From IMG/VR virus record IMGVR_UViG_2778261224_000010: DNA of 4,537 nucleotides; one strand, written 5' to 3'. Numbering within the stretch: the stretch's first letter is position 1; every line of letters starts with the position of its first letter. Shown one piece after another: positions 1-4,537 of this stretch. The notes beneath the pieces are model-generated. The model saw nothing but the letters and a program-made list of their open reading frames with translations, searched no databases and was not told the origin of the DNA. Source of the DNA: a virus (taxonomy: Duplodnaviria; Heunggongvirae; Uroviricota; Caudoviricetes). A program made the translations under genes and the position numbers.

Positions 1-1719
1 CAAAGCGAGAGCGCGGCAGCCGGTTCTGCGACTTCAGCAGCTGGATCAGCAACTGCTGCGGCTAACAGCCAGAAAGCAGCGAAGACGAGTGAAACTAACG
101 CAAAGTCCAGCCAGACGGCAGCGAAGACCAGCGAAACGAATGCTAAAGCCAGCGAAACTGCGGCGAAAAGCAGTCAGGATGCAGCAGCTGAAAGCGAGAG
201 TGCCGCAGCTGGTTCTGCAAGTGCGGCGGCTGCTTCTGCCACTGCATCAGCAAACAGTCAAAAAGCTGCAAAAACCAGTGAAACCAATGCAAAGACAAGC
301 GAGACTGCAGCGGCGAACTCGGCGCAAGCATCGGCAGCAAGCCAGACAGCAGCTAAAGCAAGTGAGGATGCAGCCAGAGAGTATGCAAGCCAGGCTGCGG
401 AGCCGTATAAACAAGTATTGCAGCCGCTTCCTGATGTGTGGATACCATTTAACGATTCACTGGATATGATTACGGGGTTTTCGCCATCATATAAAAAGAT
501 TGTTATTGGTGATGATGAAATAACGATGCCTGGCGACAAGGTTGTTAAGTTTAAACGCGCATCGAAAGCAACCTATATTAATAAATCTGGTGTGCTGACA
601 GAGGCTGCCATTGACGAGCCACGATTTGAACGTGATGGCCTGCTTATTGAGGGACAAAGAACGAACTTCTTCCAGAACAGTACAGACCCTTCGAAGTGGA
701 ATAAGTCAACTTCACTGGACGTTACAGAAACAGGCACAGATAGTTTCGGTTTTAATTATGGCCGGTTTGTCGTACAGGATTCGATTGTTGGCACAAGTAA
801 AGCGCATACCATTATAGGGCTGTATTCAAGTACCGGAGGGGTTGATACTTCAGGTGACGAAAAGTATGTAACTATATCCTGCCGGGTAAAAAGTGAAGTT
901 GATAATATCGCCGTTCGTATTTTATTTGAACATTATGATGGGGAAGTAAGGACATCAATAGGAACAGCAAGCCTGAACCTTACCACCCGCATAATTAGCA
1001 AGACGGGTCAGACAAGCCGTGTTACAGCAAGGTCTGTTAAGGATGATGCAACTGGCTGGATATTTTTTGAGGCTACATTAAAAGCAGATACAACAGAAAA
1101 TACGGTTGGTGGTTTCGTCCAGTATTCTCCGGATACAGGGCAGATGGTGGCATCAGGGGATTGTCTCGATGTAACCACTCCACAGATTGAGGCTGGTACA
1201 GGCGCATCATCTTTTATTGTTACGGGGGCGGCACCGGTAACGCGGGCAAGCGATATAGTTACAGTCCCAATTAAGAATAATCTTTATAATCTTCCTTTTA
1301 CGGTTCTTTGTGAGGTACATAAGAACTGGTATAAAACGCCAAATGCAGCACCGCGTGTTTTTGATACCGGCGGTCATCAAACCGGAGCGGCTATCATTCT
1401 TGGCTTCTGTTCTTCAGCAGATTACGACGGATTTCCTTGTTGCGATATTGGTGGGTCTAACAGACGGATAAACGAAAATGCATCACTTGAAAAAATGGTT
1501 ATGGGGATGCGTGTAAAGTCTGATCAGTCTACATGCGCAGTAAGTAACGGGCGTATATCCAGCGAAACAAAAACCACATGGTCATATATTCAGAACTCCG
1601 CAATTATCCGTATTGGAGGCCAGACTACAGCCGGTTTACGCCATTTATTTGGTCATATCAGGAATTTCAGAATATGGCACAAGGCATTGACTGATGCTCA
1701 GATGGGGGAGTCAATCTAA
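1..1719 (+). CDS. Side tail fiber protein, C-terminal portion (5' end lies upstream of the window)
   Basis: Frame 1 is open from base 1 to TAA at 1717-1719 and translates as QSESAAAGSATSAAGSATAAANSQKAAKTSETNAKSSQTAAKTSETNAK..., the Ala/Ser/Thr/Lys-rich repeat typical of lambdoid side tail fibers as I recall them. The listed ORF 418..1719 is in the same frame, so its Met is internal. The C-terminal ~430 aa is a globular, beta-rich distal domain ending in a LamG/ConA-like motif (FRIWHKALTDAQM). Confidence 0.88.
   Translation, partial: QSESAAAGSATSAAGSATAAANSQKAAKTSETNAKSSQTAAKTSETNAKASETAAKSSQDAAAESESAAAGSASAAAASATASANSQKAAKTSETNAKTSETAAANSAQASAASQTAAKASEDAAREYASQAAEPYKQVLQPLPDVWIPFNDSLDMITGFSPSYKKIVIGDDEITMPGDKVVKFKRASKATYINKSGVLTEAAIDEPRFERDGLLIEGQRTNFFQNSTDPSKWNKSTSLDVTETGTDSFGFNYGRFVVQDSIVGTSKAHTIIGLYSSTGGVDTSGDEKYVTISCRVKSEVDNIAVRILFEHYDGEVRTSIGTASLNLTTRIISKTGQTSRVTARSVKDDATGWIFFEATLKADTTENTVGGFVQYSPDTGQMVASGDCLDVTTPQIEAGTGASSFIVTGAAPVTRASDIVTVPIKNNLYNLPFTVLCEVHKNWYKTPNAAPRVFDTGGHQTGAAIILGFCSSADYDGFPCCDIGGSNRRINENASLEKMVMGMRVKSDQSTCAVSNGRISSETKTTWSYIQNSAIIRIGGQTTAGLRHLFGHIRNFRIWHKALTDAQMGESI
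4..294. repeat. Two imperfect direct repeats of about 100 bp (4-105 and 193-294, offset 189 bp = 63 codons) inside the tail fiber gene
   Basis: Copy 1 encodes SESAAAGSATSAAGSATAAANSQKAAKTSETNAK and copy 2 SESAAAGSASAAAASATASANSQKAAKTSETNAK. Shorter KTSETNAK units recur at about 82-105, 121-144 and 271-294. DNA identity is roughly 70 percent by eye. Confidence 0.7.
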
Positions 1720-2000
1720 TGAAAGATTTAACACTCAAATTTGCAGACAGGGCCGACTTTTCGGCCTTTATGGATAGCACTGGCTATTATGATGACGAGT
1801 CGATGCAGGATGATATTCTTATTGACGTGATAGGTAACGTGTACAAAGAAACCGGAGAACTGACTGAAGATGGCGAACCGGTATGTGTTAAGGAAGACGG
1901 ATATTTTGTAAACGTGCGCATCATTAATGATTCGCAAATATCGTCATTATTCGATGAATACGCGGTTGCTGTTGAGCATCAACTTCGTGGCTGGATGTGA
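1719..2000 (+). CDS. Hypothetical small acidic protein (93 aa), translationally coupled to the tail fiber gene
   Basis: ATG at 1719-1721 overlaps the tail fiber stop (TAATG). Shine-Dalgarno GGGGGAG at 1704-1710, 8 nt upstream. About 21 Asp/Glu against 7 Lys/Arg, so strongly acidic. I do not recognise the family. Confidence 0.7.
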   Translation: MKDLTLKFADRADFSAFMDSTGYYDDESMQDDILIDVIGNVYKETGELTEDGEPVCVKEDGYFVNVRIINDSQISSLFDEYAVAVEHQLRGWM

Positions 2001-2009
2001 GGAAGGAAA

Positions 2010-2714
2010 ATGGCTACATCGACAGTAATTCCAGGAGACATCACCACGTTAAAGGGAGATGTCAGTAAAGCCAAGGAAGATATTTCCTCAATTAACGGAA
2101 AAGTATCAACGCTTCAGACTGAGATGACCAGTGCAAAGCAGGATATCAGCTCCAGATACACAAAAACTGAAGTTGATAATAAGCTGAAAAACAAAGTGGA
2201 AGTGAACGATCTGGAAAGTGGTCGTTATGGCGGAGATTTTTATCCACTGACAGGTCGTGAAGCGTTTTATTTATGGAATTTGGCCACGACTACAGCGGCG
2301 GCAAACCTTTATCTTAATCCTGACCCTGCAATTTCGTCTGTACTGCGGTCAACATCGTCTATCCGCTATAAGCATTCAGTAGAGACGATAGATTCAGAGC
2401 ACGCCGATCTCATTTTCAAGATGCGCCCTGTGTGGTACAGGTCGCAATGCGAAAATGACAGGCGTGACTGGGGATTCTACGGATTGATTGCCGAGGAAGT
2501 AGGAGAAATTGCCCCTCAGTTTGTACACTGGCGACCAGCTAACGAGAATGATGCTCCTGAAGCTATTTCCAGCAATGGCCTTGTTGCCGAAGGTGTAATG
2601 TACGAACGTCTGGTTGTTCCACTGATTCACCATATCCAGAAACTGACTGAAAGAGTTGATGAACTTGAGTCAGAATTAAAGTTGTTATCAACTTCCCGAA
2701 GCGATATCGGATAA
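2010..2714 (+). CDS. Tail-fiber-like protein: N-terminal coiled coil plus C-terminal intramolecular chaperone (peptidase S74-like, self-cleaving) domain
   Basis: ATG at 2010 with GAGGAAGGA (1999-2007) just upstream. Residues 10-70 are heptad-like (DITTLKGDVSKAKEDISSINGKVSTLQTEM...). The C-terminal half matches the endosialidase-chaperone pattern recalled from memory: S116-S-I-R-Y-K121 (Ser...Lys with conserved Arg, about 2355-2372), GLIAEEVGEIAPQFV, and a terminal helix YERLVVPLIHHIQKLTERVDELESEL. Confidence 0.8.
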   Translation: MATSTVIPGDITTLKGDVSKAKEDISSINGKVSTLQTEMTSAKQDISSRYTKTEVDNKLKNKVEVNDLESGRYGGDFYPLTGREAFYLWNLATTTAAANLYLNPDPAISSVLRSTSSIRYKHSVETIDSEHADLIFKMRPVWYRSQCENDRRDWGFYGLIAEEVGEIAPQFVHWRPANENDAPEAISSNGLVAEGVMYERLVVPLIHHIQKLTERVDELESELKLLSTSRSDIG

Positions 2715-2724
2715 AGGAGGAGTA

Positions 2725-3012
2725 ATGGATATAACACCTTTCCTTCATGCACTTTGTGCTGTGGCTGCACAGGTACTGGTTGGTCTTTTTACCGGAAACT
2801 GGGCTTACGGTGCGATAGCTGGTTGTACGTTCTTCATCGCTCGTGAACATACCCAGGCAGAATATCGCTGGATTGAAATGTTCGGGCATGGCAAGCGTAT
2901 GAATATGCCGTGGTGGGGCGGTTTTGATCCACGCGCGTGGGATGTGGCAAGCCTGATGGATTTTGCTGTGCCGGTGGTGCCGTGTCTGCTGATCTGGATG
3001 TTGATCCGTTAA
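2725..3012 (+). CDS. Hypothetical small membrane protein (95 aa, 2-3 predicted transmembrane segments)
   Basis: Strong Shine-Dalgarno AAGGAGGAG (2714-2722) 4 nt before ATG at 2725. Hydrophobic stretches PFLHALCAVAAQVLVGLF, AYGAIAGCTFFIA and ASLMDFAVPVVPCLLIWMLI, with a Trp-rich segment MPWWGGFDPRAW between them. Last gene of the + strand cluster. No recognisable family. Confidence 0.7.
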   Translation: MDITPFLHALCAVAAQVLVGLFTGNWAYGAIAGCTFFIAREHTQAEYRWIEMFGHGKRMNMPWWGGFDPRAWDVASLMDFAVPVVPCLLIWMLIR

Positions 3013-3028
3013 ATATAAAAAGTAAAAA

Positions 3029-3062
3029 GCCGCAGTAACTTGTCATGATAGGATACTGCGGC
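3029..3062 (-). terminator. Rho-independent terminator candidate for the minus-strand int/dinI unit (weaker bidirectional function possible)
   Basis: Perfect 9-bp inverted repeat GCCGCAGTA (3029-3037) / TACTGCGGC (3054-3062) with a 16-nt loop. On the - strand the stem is followed by TTTTTACTTTTTATATTT. On the + strand no good U-tract follows. It lies between the convergent gene ends at 3012 and 3130. Confidence 0.55.
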
Positions 3063-3129
3063 TGGCTGGTTAACTTTCGATAGTGCGAGTATTGAATGAT
3101 TTCCAGCCGTTACTGATTTTACGTGCTAA

Positions 3130-3378
3130 TTAGTGAACAAACCACTCGTCAGCAGACTCCCAGGTATCTTTCAGAGTTTCCTGAACAAAAGTTTTAGCTG
3201 AATCTTTATCGGCGGTGCGCGTAACAGAAAGGCCATCGTTGCTGGTGGCTTTTACGATCACCTCTACATCGTCATAACGTTTACTGATGCGTCGGGTTAA
3301 TTCTTCCTTTAACGCATCCACAGCACCGTTTGGCATTTTAGTCATTTTTTCTTTGGCTATGCAGATCTCAATACGCAT
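3130..3378 (-). CDS. dinI: DinI-family (DNA-damage-inducible protein I-like) protein, 82 aa
   Basis: Translation [35 protein letters not shown]...[33 protein letters not shown] shares the MRIE..IAK..GA(I/V)DAL..EL(S/T)RRI..LSV..ETWESAD(D/E)WFV signature of E. coli DinI as I recall it. Shine-Dalgarno AGAGGGA (complement of about 3383-3389) upstream of ATG at 3376-3378. Two LexA boxes lie immediately upstream. Confidence 0.88.
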
Positions 3379-3391
3379 AAAAGTCCCTCTA

Positions 3392-3411
3392 TACTGTGTT
3401 TGTATACAGTG
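3392..3411 (-). promoter_or_regulatory. LexA (SOS) box 1, promoter-proximal operator of the dinI-like gene
   Basis: TACTGTGTTTGTATACAGTG: CTGT (3394-3397), 8 nt, ACAG (3406-3409), against the consensus TACTGT(AT)4ACAGTA. It sits 14-33 nt upstream of the dinI-like start codon. Confidence 0.8.
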
Positions 3412-3413
3412 TT

Positions 3414-3443
3414 ATTTTTAACTGTATGGATAAACAGTGTCAA
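3414..3443 (-). promoter_or_regulatory. Candidate sigma70 promoter of the dinI-like gene
   Basis: On the - strand, TTGACA (complement of 3438-3443, overlapping the int stop codon at 3440-3442) is followed 17 nt later by TAAAAA(T) (complement of 3414-3420). The -35 is perfect, the -10 imperfect. LexA box 2 occupies the spacer and box 1 the start/leader region. Confidence 0.5.
3420..3439 (-). promoter_or_regulatory. LexA (SOS) box 2, within the promoter spacer
   Basis: AACTGTATGGATAAACAGTG: CTGT (3422-3425), 8 nt, ACAG (3434-3437). It lies 12 nt from box 1 and falls between the candidate -35 and -10 elements. Confidence 0.75.
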
Positions 3444-4537
3444 GAGGTCTTATTTCTGCTCCTTTGGAGCTCTTCAAAACGATTATGTAAAGATTTCGGA
3501 TACAGTTCGGTATATACCTGCCATAGCACGTTTAATGAACGATGCCCTGTAACCTGAGCGACTTCCTCAATACTAAAACCAGCCTCAAATAAGCGACTTG
3601 CCCCTTCTCTACGCAAATCATGGTATCGCAGATCTTTAATACCTAATTTGCTTCTTACCCTCTGAAATCCTGCAGTAACAGAAGTGCTGTTATATGGAAA
3701 AATGAATTCCGATTTTTTGGGCTGTCGTTGGACGATATCCCAGGCTTCCCCAAGCAAGGCTACTTTCATGTGGTTGCCTTCCTTTTTGCGTGGATCTTTC
3801 CTGTCTCTTACGAGTATAGATTTTTGTTCCTGGTCGAGATCTTCCCATCGTAACCGGCATACTTCTCCGATCCGCATACAGGACCACACAGAAAATTTGA
3901 GGATATCAACGAACGGAATTTTTGAGCATTTATGAGTAGATCGTTGTTGAAGGCCTTCAATGAGCATGTCCAGTTCATCAGATGCTGGTCTACGATTACG
4001 ACGGTTTGATTTACCAATCAAACCAAGTTTAAGTAGATATGGGCGAGCGCTTTTCGCCGGGTTTGATGTGTAATTAATTCCGTATACAGGTTTGGCCGCA
4101 TCCAGAACACTGCCAAGATAACTAACATCGTGGCTGACTGTTGCTGGACCTGCACCAGCGTTGTTTCTTAGCCTGCAATGTTCAATTACGTCATTTTCTG
4201 TCAGTTCAGATAGTTTGATCGCGGAGATGTCACTATCCATAAGCAGTTCCAGCACATATCTTTTAGTACGGCCTGCTTTACCTCCGGCATTTGGGTCATT
4301 TAAATATTTGTGTAGTAAGTCACGGACTGTAAGTCCGTCAACTGCATTTGATGATGGAATGCCATATAGATCTAATTCCATCACTTTCTGTGTTCCCCAT
4401 GTTTTGGCATGAGCATGTTTAGGGAATGTTTTGCTTTCCCTGTAAGTGATAACACCTTTTTCTTTGATAATCACATTACAGCGATAGCGTGGTGTGCCAT
4501 CGGATTTTAGTCGTTTCTCTATGTTATAGTACGCCAT
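3440..4537 (-). CDS. int: Phage tyrosine-type integrase (site-specific recombinase)
   Basis: 365-aa ORF from ATG at 4535-4537 (at the window edge, so the true N-terminus could lie further out) to TGA at 3440-3442. The C-terminal catalytic domain carries the tyrosine recombinase residues: Arg in SCMRIGEVCRLRWEDLD, H-x-x-R in LRYHDLRREGASRLF, and His/Tyr in GHRSLNVLWQVY. Confidence 0.9.
   Translation of the reverse strand: MAYYNIEKRLKSDGTPRYRCNVIIKEKGVITYRESKTFPKHAHAKTWGTQKVMELDLYGIPSSNAVDGLTVRDLLHKYLNDPNAGGKAGRTKRYVLELLMDSDISAIKLSELTENDVIEHCRLRNNAGAGPATVSHDVSYLGSVLDAAKPVYGINYTSNPAKSARPYLLKLGLIGKSNRRNRRPASDELDMLIEGLQQRSTHKCSKIPFVDILKFSVWSCMRIGEVCRLRWEDLDQEQKSILVRDRKDPRKKEGNHMKVALLGEAWDIVQRQPKKSEFIFPYNSTSVTAGFQRVRSKLGIKDLRYHDLRREGASRLFEAGFSIEEVAQVTGHRSLNVLWQVYTELYPKSLHNRFEELQRSRNKTS

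Follow-up and report, generated by a model that had tools for sequence, protein, structure and literature searches.

What is a fiber-type chaperone domain doing on a phage protein that gives it just 115 residues to fold? The question is raised by a 4537-bp stretch of DNA (IMG/VR record IMGVR_UViG_2778261224_000010; hereafter the window), the right end of an Escherichia coli lambdoid prophage integrated beside dusA. An open reading frame (ORF) on its plus strand (2010-2714), with the ribosome-binding site GGAAGGAAA 9 nucleotides upstream, encodes a protein of 234 residues that ends in an S74 domain and follows the side tail fiber gene, stf, and a small gene, p93. In our judgment, the gene probably encodes an exchangeable distal (or branch) fiber in its shortest allelic form, carried in the side-tail-fiber cassette of lambdoid phages and several groups of virulent siphophages. 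The gene is real, very common and of a known kind, and it represents no new kind of system. The protein divides into the following parts, given by window position.

2010 to 2054, plus strand: N-terminal anchor, residues 1-15 (MATSTVIPGDITTLK), putative docking peptide for the proximal fiber.
2040 to 2156, plus strand: heptad coiled coil, residues 11-49, about 5.5 heptads.
2157 to 2354, plus strand: tip module before the predicted cleavage site, residues 50-115, with the fiber motif YTKTEVDNKLK, after which a beta-rich segment runs to ...TTTAAANLYLNPDPAISSVLRST.
2355 to 2711, plus strand: S74 intramolecular chaperone (IMC), or auto-processing, domain, residues 116-234, 13.7 kDa.
2355 to 2357, plus strand: codon for Ser116.
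2370 to 2372, plus strand: codon for Lys121.

An earlier sequence-only reading of the window had placed an S74 chaperone at the C-terminus of this ORF and had named a Pfam profile search as the check. In that search, residues 116-172 matched PF13884 (Peptidase_S74) with an E value of 3.7e-6 and a score of 27.5 bits, above the gathering cut-off of 22, and the alignment covers positions 1-57 of the 58-position profile. Against the sequences of the PDB, phmmer matched the C-terminus of DT57C LtfA (8hqz_d; E 1e-5). We also built a single-chain AlphaFold2 (AF2) model of the 234-residue protein on 32 relatives. The block-mean pLDDT in the model is 81-96 for residues 120-230, and an amphipathic C-terminal helix spans residues 198-232. 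The best PDB match to the model by Foldseek is the ICA domain of MyRF (7dc3; E 2.8e-5, probability 1.0), followed by the IMC of endoNF (3gw6) and then by GA-1 3gud. In BFVD, 194 entries matched at E ≤ 1e-3, and those with a name among the best 50 are all S74/IMC, fiber, tail or receptor-binding proteins. Of the PHROG matches that name a function, nearly all read 'tail fiber protein', 'tail protein' or 'minor tail protein', the exceptions being two weak matches to 'minor head protein'. NCBIfam gave no match for the S74 protein, p93 or p95. The Pfam score and the IMC/ICA matches of the model bear out the proposed domain.

The same reading had located a catalytic Ser/Lys pair at positions 116 and 121, and this too is borne out: the motif, S116-S-I-R-Y-K121-H-S-V, is present, and an alignment of 32 relatives shows no variation at S116 or K121. 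The protein does not match the consensus S-D-x-R-x-K-x-N-I, with Asp at +1 and Asn at +7. The sequence-only reading was right that the motif is off consensus but wrong to take it as unusual, as the SSxRYK context is also found in the long fibers P0185 (958 residues), P0191 (1243 residues) and P0192 (1025 residues); in fibers of this length, it reads RSTSSRRYK. Judging from these sequences, SSxRYK is a subfamily signature. Cleavage is predicted between Thr115 and Ser116, and with a Lys at +5 this pair has the same arrangement as Thr1263-Ser1264/Lys1269 of T5 pb1, in which the mutation S1264A blocks processing (PMC4690869).

Stand-alone S74 proteins of 183-242 residues also occur in unrelated lineages in metagenomic data (P0201, P0206, P0215, P0252, P0260, P0275, P0292 and P0300). 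Their N-terminal parts are short and, by eye, beta-rich or Gly/Thr-rich, with no obvious heptads. Both the coiled coil and the anchor of the 234-residue protein are missing from them, and incomplete gene calls could account for some. Small S74 proteins may have originated more than once.

The passenger before the cleavage site comprises the anchor, ∼40 residues of coiled coil and a generic tip module. Its length of 115 residues is as the sequence-only reading had it; the description of that length as coiled coil is not, since heptads are confined to residues 11-49. There, the a and d positions (I11, L14, V18, A21, I25, I28, V32, L35, M39, A42 and I46) are hydrophobic in 11 cases out of 11, in one register only, and the register is lost past residue 50. 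AF2 predicts a helix at residues 9-49, and the segment weakly resembles the P22 gp26 trimeric coiled coil (4lin, E 0.005). Differences in length between alleles in this region are exact 7-residue units, with the heptad register kept.

A short 'Ala/Thr linker' had also been proposed. Among the 32 aligned relatives, T94 is nearly invariant, N99 invariant, and R113 invariant or nearly so. Of 3527 relatives found with HMMER, 150 were listed, and most of these start matching at query residues ∼80-95. Because T94 and N99 are conserved and the matches begin at about this point, the stretch A92-T-T-T-A-A-A-N99 is not a linker; it is the best-conserved portion of a tip module that accompanies the chaperone in thousands of S74 fibers. 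Starting at query residues 25-49, the protein is 51-61% identical (51-58% for the fibers of 958-1243 residues) to the last ∼180-200 residues of the Stf-type fibers P0185-P0192. Residues 50-93 are conserved between the lambdoid and T1-like versions (GxFYPLTGxxAFYL).

The position of the gene is recurrent. In phages of several groups, a fiber with a PLPDVWIPF junction and a domain like the gene transfer agent (GTA) spike is followed by a ∼92-residue protein and then by a protein ending in S74. Proteins in this third slot are as follows.

PhiR55_1, lambdoid: 227 residues.
IdasGreatGrand, lambdoid: 234 residues.
PeterMerian, Drexlerviridae: 231 residues.
KarlJaspers, Drexlerviridae: 221 residues.
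About 40 further genomes, Drexlerviridae: similar short form.
HMD-P4, Tequintavirus: 333 residues.
JenP2, Nonagvirus: 348 residues.
IrisVonRoten, Tequintavirus: 574 residues (gp24).

All of the third-slot proteins tested have a C-terminal S74 domain (PeterMerian, HMD-P4, JenP2, IrisVonRoten and a 346-residue prophage allele). The N-terminus is likewise shared. Over its 15 residues, the anchor of the window protein shares 73-87% identity with the N-termini of the six third-slot proteins compared, namely those of PhiR55_1, PeterMerian, KarlJaspers, HMD-P4, JenP2 and IrisVonRoten. The pattern M-x-T-x-T-[VIN]-I-P-x-D-I-x-x-L-K is common to all of them, and the remainder of each is unrelated. The anchor also matches the N-termini of phrog_4563 and phrog_19752.

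Allelic exchange at this slot is seen among close relatives. We surveyed 80 IMG/VR loci in which p93 is at least 91% identical to that of the window, 67 of which have a complete third-slot ORF. The 346-residue allele is present in 36 of these, and an allele of 227-241 residues in 28. The 346-residue allele starts MATSTVIPDDIKTLK, and many 234-residue alleles have identical first 15 residues; the two are alike over the first 15-20 residues and diverge immediately past the anchor. Beyond that point, the 346-residue allele has a different body and belongs to a different chaperone subfamily, with the canonical motif SDRDLKDNI and a Pfam S74 match at E 5e-14. It occurs in sibling prophages at IMG/VR loci L013-L081 (e.g. 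L048, at about 4790-5830), and three disrupted copies, of 90, 189 and 323 residues, were seen.

A conserved N-terminus, an exchangeable middle and a C-terminal chaperone are the signature of a modular fiber that docks N-terminally and folds from its C-terminus. Because the 234-residue protein combines these three features, we read it as a minimal member of the slot family. It fits the family by position, anchor and chaperone, with no receptor-binding domain between the latter two. The suggestion made earlier, of an accessory to or an adaptor on the upstream fiber, sits well with the third position in the cassette and with the 15-residue N-terminus shared with larger slot fibers.

We infer that trimerization, cleavage, docking on the fiber and any receptor contact would proceed in the following way. 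Three chains would be put in register by the C-terminal S74 chaperone (residues 116-234), which would template the folding of the tip module (about 50-115) and the coiled coil (11-49). Once the trimer was correct, Ser116, activated by Lys121, would cut between Thr115 and Ser116, and the chaperone trimer would depart. The mature product would be a trimer of 12.5-kDa chains, each consisting of the docking peptide, a ∼40-residue coiled coil and a ∼65-residue tip. The first ∼15 residues would attach this stub to the proximal side tail fiber encoded directly upstream. As the proximal fiber is predicted to have its own lectin-like (GTA-spike-type) domain, the stub would be a short distal extension, and the surface exposed by removal of the chaperone would be its sole candidate binding face.

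Several observations weigh against a distal fiber of this kind. The residue after the nucleophile (+1) is Ser, versus Asp in the Pfam consensus. However, because the Ser substitution is fixed in a large subfamily that includes the fibers of 958-1243 residues, Asp at +1 is a consensus feature of other S74 subfamilies and not a defining one. The presumptive mature-tip region has pLDDT <50 in the AF2 monomer model (residues 49-101, or up to 110) and, given this low confidence, the model does not establish the fold of the tip module. No recognizable receptor-binding domain was found in the mature stub, S74 being the only domain matched in Pfam and NCBIfam, just as the sequence-only reading had anticipated. 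Moreover, the slot is empty in phage 21, mEp460_4F5 and PhiR40_1, in which p92 is followed directly by p95, so viable relatives without the gene exist. Two of these, mEp460_4F5 and PhiR40_1, share the integrase/DinI end of the window at 95-96% DNA identity and show a clean cassette-sized gap. The 234-residue gene is dispensable in these relatives. Finally, phage 21 lacks a third gene, yet the fiber junction proposed as the docking site is no less conserved there. It follows that the docking surface is not pinned to the junction and could involve p93.

The gene is found in 746 of 5426 complete E. coli genomes (14%), and 740 of the 746 copies, at ≥80% coverage, were counted as intact. It also lies in the lateral-fiber locus of about 43 virulent T1-like phages (Drexlerviridae). 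Among close alleles, the ratio of nonsynonymous to synonymous substitution (dN/dS) ranges from 0.16-0.31 in the passenger to 0.12-0.18 in the IMC, both based on small counts. These comparisons indicate that the gene is functional and under purifying selection. The chromosomes of the E. coli B strains C2566 and BL21(DE3) (H227 and H228) carry a copy of the gene with 97.4% nucleotide identity; B-strain expression hosts may thus contain the protein as background, and these strains are an easy cloning source.

Could the stub be a pure cap or spacer? It would then assemble and dock, and would occupy or stabilize the distal docking site as a 'blank' allele making no receptor contact. We regard this as doubtful, although part of the evidence is compatible with it. 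No receptor-binding domain was detected with Pfam, PHROG or NCBIfam, residues 85-115 are a generic module of thousands of S74 fibers, and a lectin-like domain is already present on the proximal fiber. The short allele, moreover, alternates with the 346-residue allele, whose passenger is 226 residues long versus 115. Yet phages with an empty slot exist, and so a cap is not required. The conservation of residues 50-93 across lambdoid and T1-like versions suggests a specific surface, and the binding site of T5 pb1 has been proposed to lie at the terminal end of the fiber, where it is unmasked by cleavage of the IMC (PMC4690869). One could also imagine, tentatively, a 'blank' self-cleaving plug that lacks a receptor-binding domain and fills a universal docking site, bound by the 15-residue anchor, at the end of the side tail fiber; instead of contacting a receptor, it would set fiber geometry or block other distal fibers in co-infection. 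If this were true, the intramolecular chaperone would build a structural adaptor, not an adhesin, and phages would switch between armed (346-574 residues) and blank (about 230 residues) tips by cassette exchange right after the anchor.

That the small S74 protein acts in trans, as a non-virion chaperone that aids trimerization of the upstream fiber and is then discarded, strikes us as improbable. The idea is embodied in the GenBank labels 'putative lateral tail fiber chaperone' and 'chaperone of endosialidase', applied by the BASEL authors and others. It draws on the fact that the gene always adjoins a fiber gene and on a passenger too small for an obvious receptor-binding domain. However, the same type of fiber occurs without the gene in the three empty-slot phages, so co-occurrence is not obligate. 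Among sibling prophages and in other phage groups, the same slot holds proteins of 333-574 residues with the same N-terminus, whose passengers (221-463 residues) are roomy enough for a receptor-binding domain. In T5 pb1, the S74 domain folds its own chain (in cis) and is then cut off (PMC4690869). The passenger, including its heptad register, is under purifying selection, as would not be needed for a mere handle. No Pfam, PHROG or NCBIfam match linked the 234-residue protein to any tail-fiber-assembly family (such as the lambda Tfa/Mu gpU and T4 gp38/gp57A types).

Quite improbable, in our view, is a protein that stays unprocessed, with the S74 domain retained as the distal knob of a 234-residue fiber. 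The Ser in place of Asp after the nucleophile could be taken to fit such a protein. Yet neither S116 nor K121 varies among the aligned relatives, T5 pb1 has the same Thr-Ser scissile pair, and the long Stf fibers with SSxRYK preserve all of these residues.

Least credible is that the gene is a long fiber gene in decay, or a lysogenic-conversion moron with no connection to the virion. Homology of residues 49-234 to the final ∼185 residues of long Stf fibers, with last residues identical to those of P0185, would fit an origin by internal deletion or recombination. Decay is unlikely, however: 740 E. coli genomes and about 43 virulent phages have an intact ORF, dN/dS lies far under 1, the coiled-coil indels are exact heptads, and the few disrupted copies seen belong to the 346-residue allele. 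A moron reusing the fold, as the sequence-only reading had also entertained, finds no support; the gene has no plus-strand promoter-like site of its own upstream, its GC content matches that of its neighbors, and it is present in lateral-fiber loci of virulent T1-like phages. The window as a whole is laid out as follows.

1 to 1719, plus strand: 3′ part of stf (side tail fiber or lateral tail fiber, the proximal fiber), 1719 nucleotides in the window.
1719 to 2000, plus strand: p93, small acidic protein of 93 residues (phrog_1361).
2010 to 2714, plus strand: S74 gene, 234 residues, 26.2-kDa precursor, probable minimal distal or branch fiber.
2725 to 3012, plus strand: p95, membrane-protein gene, 95 residues (phrog_1443).
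3028 to 3063, no strand assigned: strong hairpin between the convergent p95 and dinI, from RNA folding.
3130 to 3378, minus strand: DinI-like gene.
3440 to 4537, minus strand: tyrosine integrase.

The four plus-strand genes are closely packed. The stf stop codon overlaps the p93 start (TAATG, nucleotides 1717-1721), and the gaps on either side of the 234-residue gene, 9 nucleotides after p93 and 10 before p95, both contain ribosome-binding sites. No plus-strand promoter-like site was found between any of these genes, and GC content is similar throughout the plus-strand unit. The hairpin at 3028-3063 has a predicted free energy of -21.5 kcal/mol (z -4.3), with none of 200 shuffles folding as well, and its stem is an interrupted 10+5 bp. 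It probably marks the end of the late fiber operon. A simple terminator scan of 1600-3500 called nothing, the hairpin having an over-long loop and no T-run; even without the T-run, it is likely a bidirectional terminator. Two minus-strand ORFs, at 2394-2633 and 2563-2889, are unlikely genes, antisense as they are to a conserved plus-strand gene under purifying selection.

Just past the hairpin, at about window 3053-3133, RefSeq annotates an 81-nucleotide 'capsid protein' pseudogene fragment in NZ_AP025220. This genome (NZ_AP025220.2, locus L001) is the only one 100% identical to window 1197-4537, and its prophage is a remnant. At 5848-7518 of the locus, the fiber gene is reduced to a 513-nucleotide pseudogene adjoining genes for Rha-family regulators; p93, the S74 gene and p95 are still intact despite this.

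The proximal fiber gene stf matches phrog_1419 ('tail protein') at E 1e-215, and its homologue in PhiR55_1 is annotated 'side tail fiber protein Stf'. Its shaft (about nucleotides 1-400) consists of Ala/Ser/Thr-rich 'SETNAK' repeats. Repeats of the 'AAKTSETNAK' type are near-identical at the DNA level and are also present in T1-like, T5-like and Nonagvirus fibers; they may be recombination substrates for swapping the distal cassette between phage families. Downstream of the shaft come the conserved junction, which begins with PLPDVWIPF (nucleotide 424), then a lectin-like domain that varies, and finally a C-terminus that is again conserved. Among lambdoid, T1-like, T5-like and Nonagvirus fibers, identity in the junction is 61-90%. 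Frame-1 residues 215-416 (nucleotides 643-1248) match NCBIfam NF048003 (GTA_spike_fiber) with 67.5 bits, against a cut-off of 36, and there is a weak PDB match to the head spike fiber of RcGTA, the Rhodobacter gene transfer agent (6tb9). From these matches, the coliphage side tail fiber and the GTA head spike seem to have a lectin-like module in common.

The p93 protein is 10.6 kDa with an isoelectric point of 4.05. Homologues were found by tblastn in 181 phage records, spanning lambdoid, Drexlerviridae, Dhillonvirus, Queuovirinae, T5-like and rV5-like phages, always directly after the fiber gene and with or without the S74 gene. In the homologue search, all relatives listed are at least 84% identical, and none is named. 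We obtained no Pfam, NCBIfam or PDB match for p93, the PDB sequence search giving only chance-level matches to GAPDH, and the AF2 model (16 close relatives) has a pLDDT of 47 and no usable fold. As the constant partner of the fiber, p93 and not the 234-residue protein is the better candidate for a dedicated chaperone or adaptor.

The phage 21 homologue of p95 is annotated as a membrane protein with two transmembrane domains, and p95 is probably a small two-pass membrane protein. It is last in the fiber operon in lambdoid phages only (phage 21, mEp460_4F5, PhiR40_1 and PhiR55_1) and is absent from T1-like and T5-like cassettes. From its position beside receptor-binding genes, a role in superinfection exclusion may be guessed at.

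Family members and their S74 domain are already in public databases, where they are loosely annotated. The labels are inconsistent, with 'tail fiber domain-containing protein' and 'hypothetical protein' in use alongside the two chaperone names. Calling the gene a minimal allele of an exchangeable distal-fiber slot is better supported than calling it a chaperone. Many T1-like phages in reference collections such as BASEL carry the gene too. The literature searched for the small protein yielded genome annotations and work on larger fibers; we found no experimental, proteomic or genetic data on the family. Within that literature, nobody seems to have connected the gene with the larger slot alleles by way of their common anchor. 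Common to lambdoid, T1-like, T5-like and Nonagvirus phages, the 15-residue anchor is a candidate for a universal attachment point at which receptor-binding tips could be exchanged. The tip module and chaperone together, at about 150 residues, would be among the smallest natural S74 fold-and-release trimer units, if release occurs as proposed, and would make a handy model for study or reuse.

Among known systems, one counterpart is the gp22-gp23-gp24 locus of IrisVonRoten (Bas32, Tequintavirus). It has the same three-gene order and a homologous 92-residue middle protein. The proximal fiber junction is 78% identical, the first 15 residues of gp24 are 73% identical, and gp24 has a C-terminal S74 domain. 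This 'T-shaped tail fiber' protein has been modeled as attaching to the proximal fiber gp22, which bears a galectin-like side domain (BASEL II, PMC11990801). In contrast to the window protein, gp24 has two predicted receptor-binding domains in its 574 residues (Gp12-like RBD1 and T5-like RBD2); because it has neither, the 234-residue protein is not a T-shaped fiber. The chaperones also fall into different S74 subgroups (SDSRLKHDI versus SSIRYKHSV).

Closer in length is the 346-residue allele (phrog_4563; 'tail fiber protein' of phage Tritos), which occupies the same slot between p93 and p95. Its passenger is apparently non-coiled-coil past about residue 25. A different relationship is seen with P0185, an E. 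coli prophage fiber (phage_tail_N + Phage_fiber_2 + S74), the last ∼185 residues of which are 58% identical to residues 49-234. The two have the tip module, an RSTSSxRYK motif and an identical C-terminal tail in common. P0185, however, combines tail anchor, shaft, globular distal domain and chaperone in one polypeptide, whereas the 234-residue protein has only the last module, preceded by a short coiled coil and an N-terminal anchor of another kind.

T5 pb1 has the same C-terminal S74-type chaperone, of about 120-130 residues, with a long coiled-coil helix at its end. That chaperone is removed after the trimer has folded, unmasking the fiber tip (PMC4690869). Similarity in sequence is limited to the chaperone. 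The pb1 passenger runs to 1263 residues and includes a bullet-shaped receptor-binding domain, which the 115 residues of the window protein lack. Furthermore, pb1 is a whole fiber, whereas the 234-residue protein is a separate product that would have to dock on another fiber. A branched lateral fiber made of two proteins, one attached via the other, is known from DT57C (LtfA/LtfB; PMC4728585, PMC10713586). The C-terminus of LtfA is the best PDB sequence match to the window chaperone. In DT57C, however, the chaperone-bearing protein is the tail-proximal one, and the second protein is not homologous to the 234-residue gene.

The best structural match, the ICA domain of MyRF (7DC3), is 25% identical and comes from a eukaryotic membrane-bound transcription factor with no fiber context. 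MyRF undergoes trimerization-dependent self-cleavage, which releases an N-terminal trimer.

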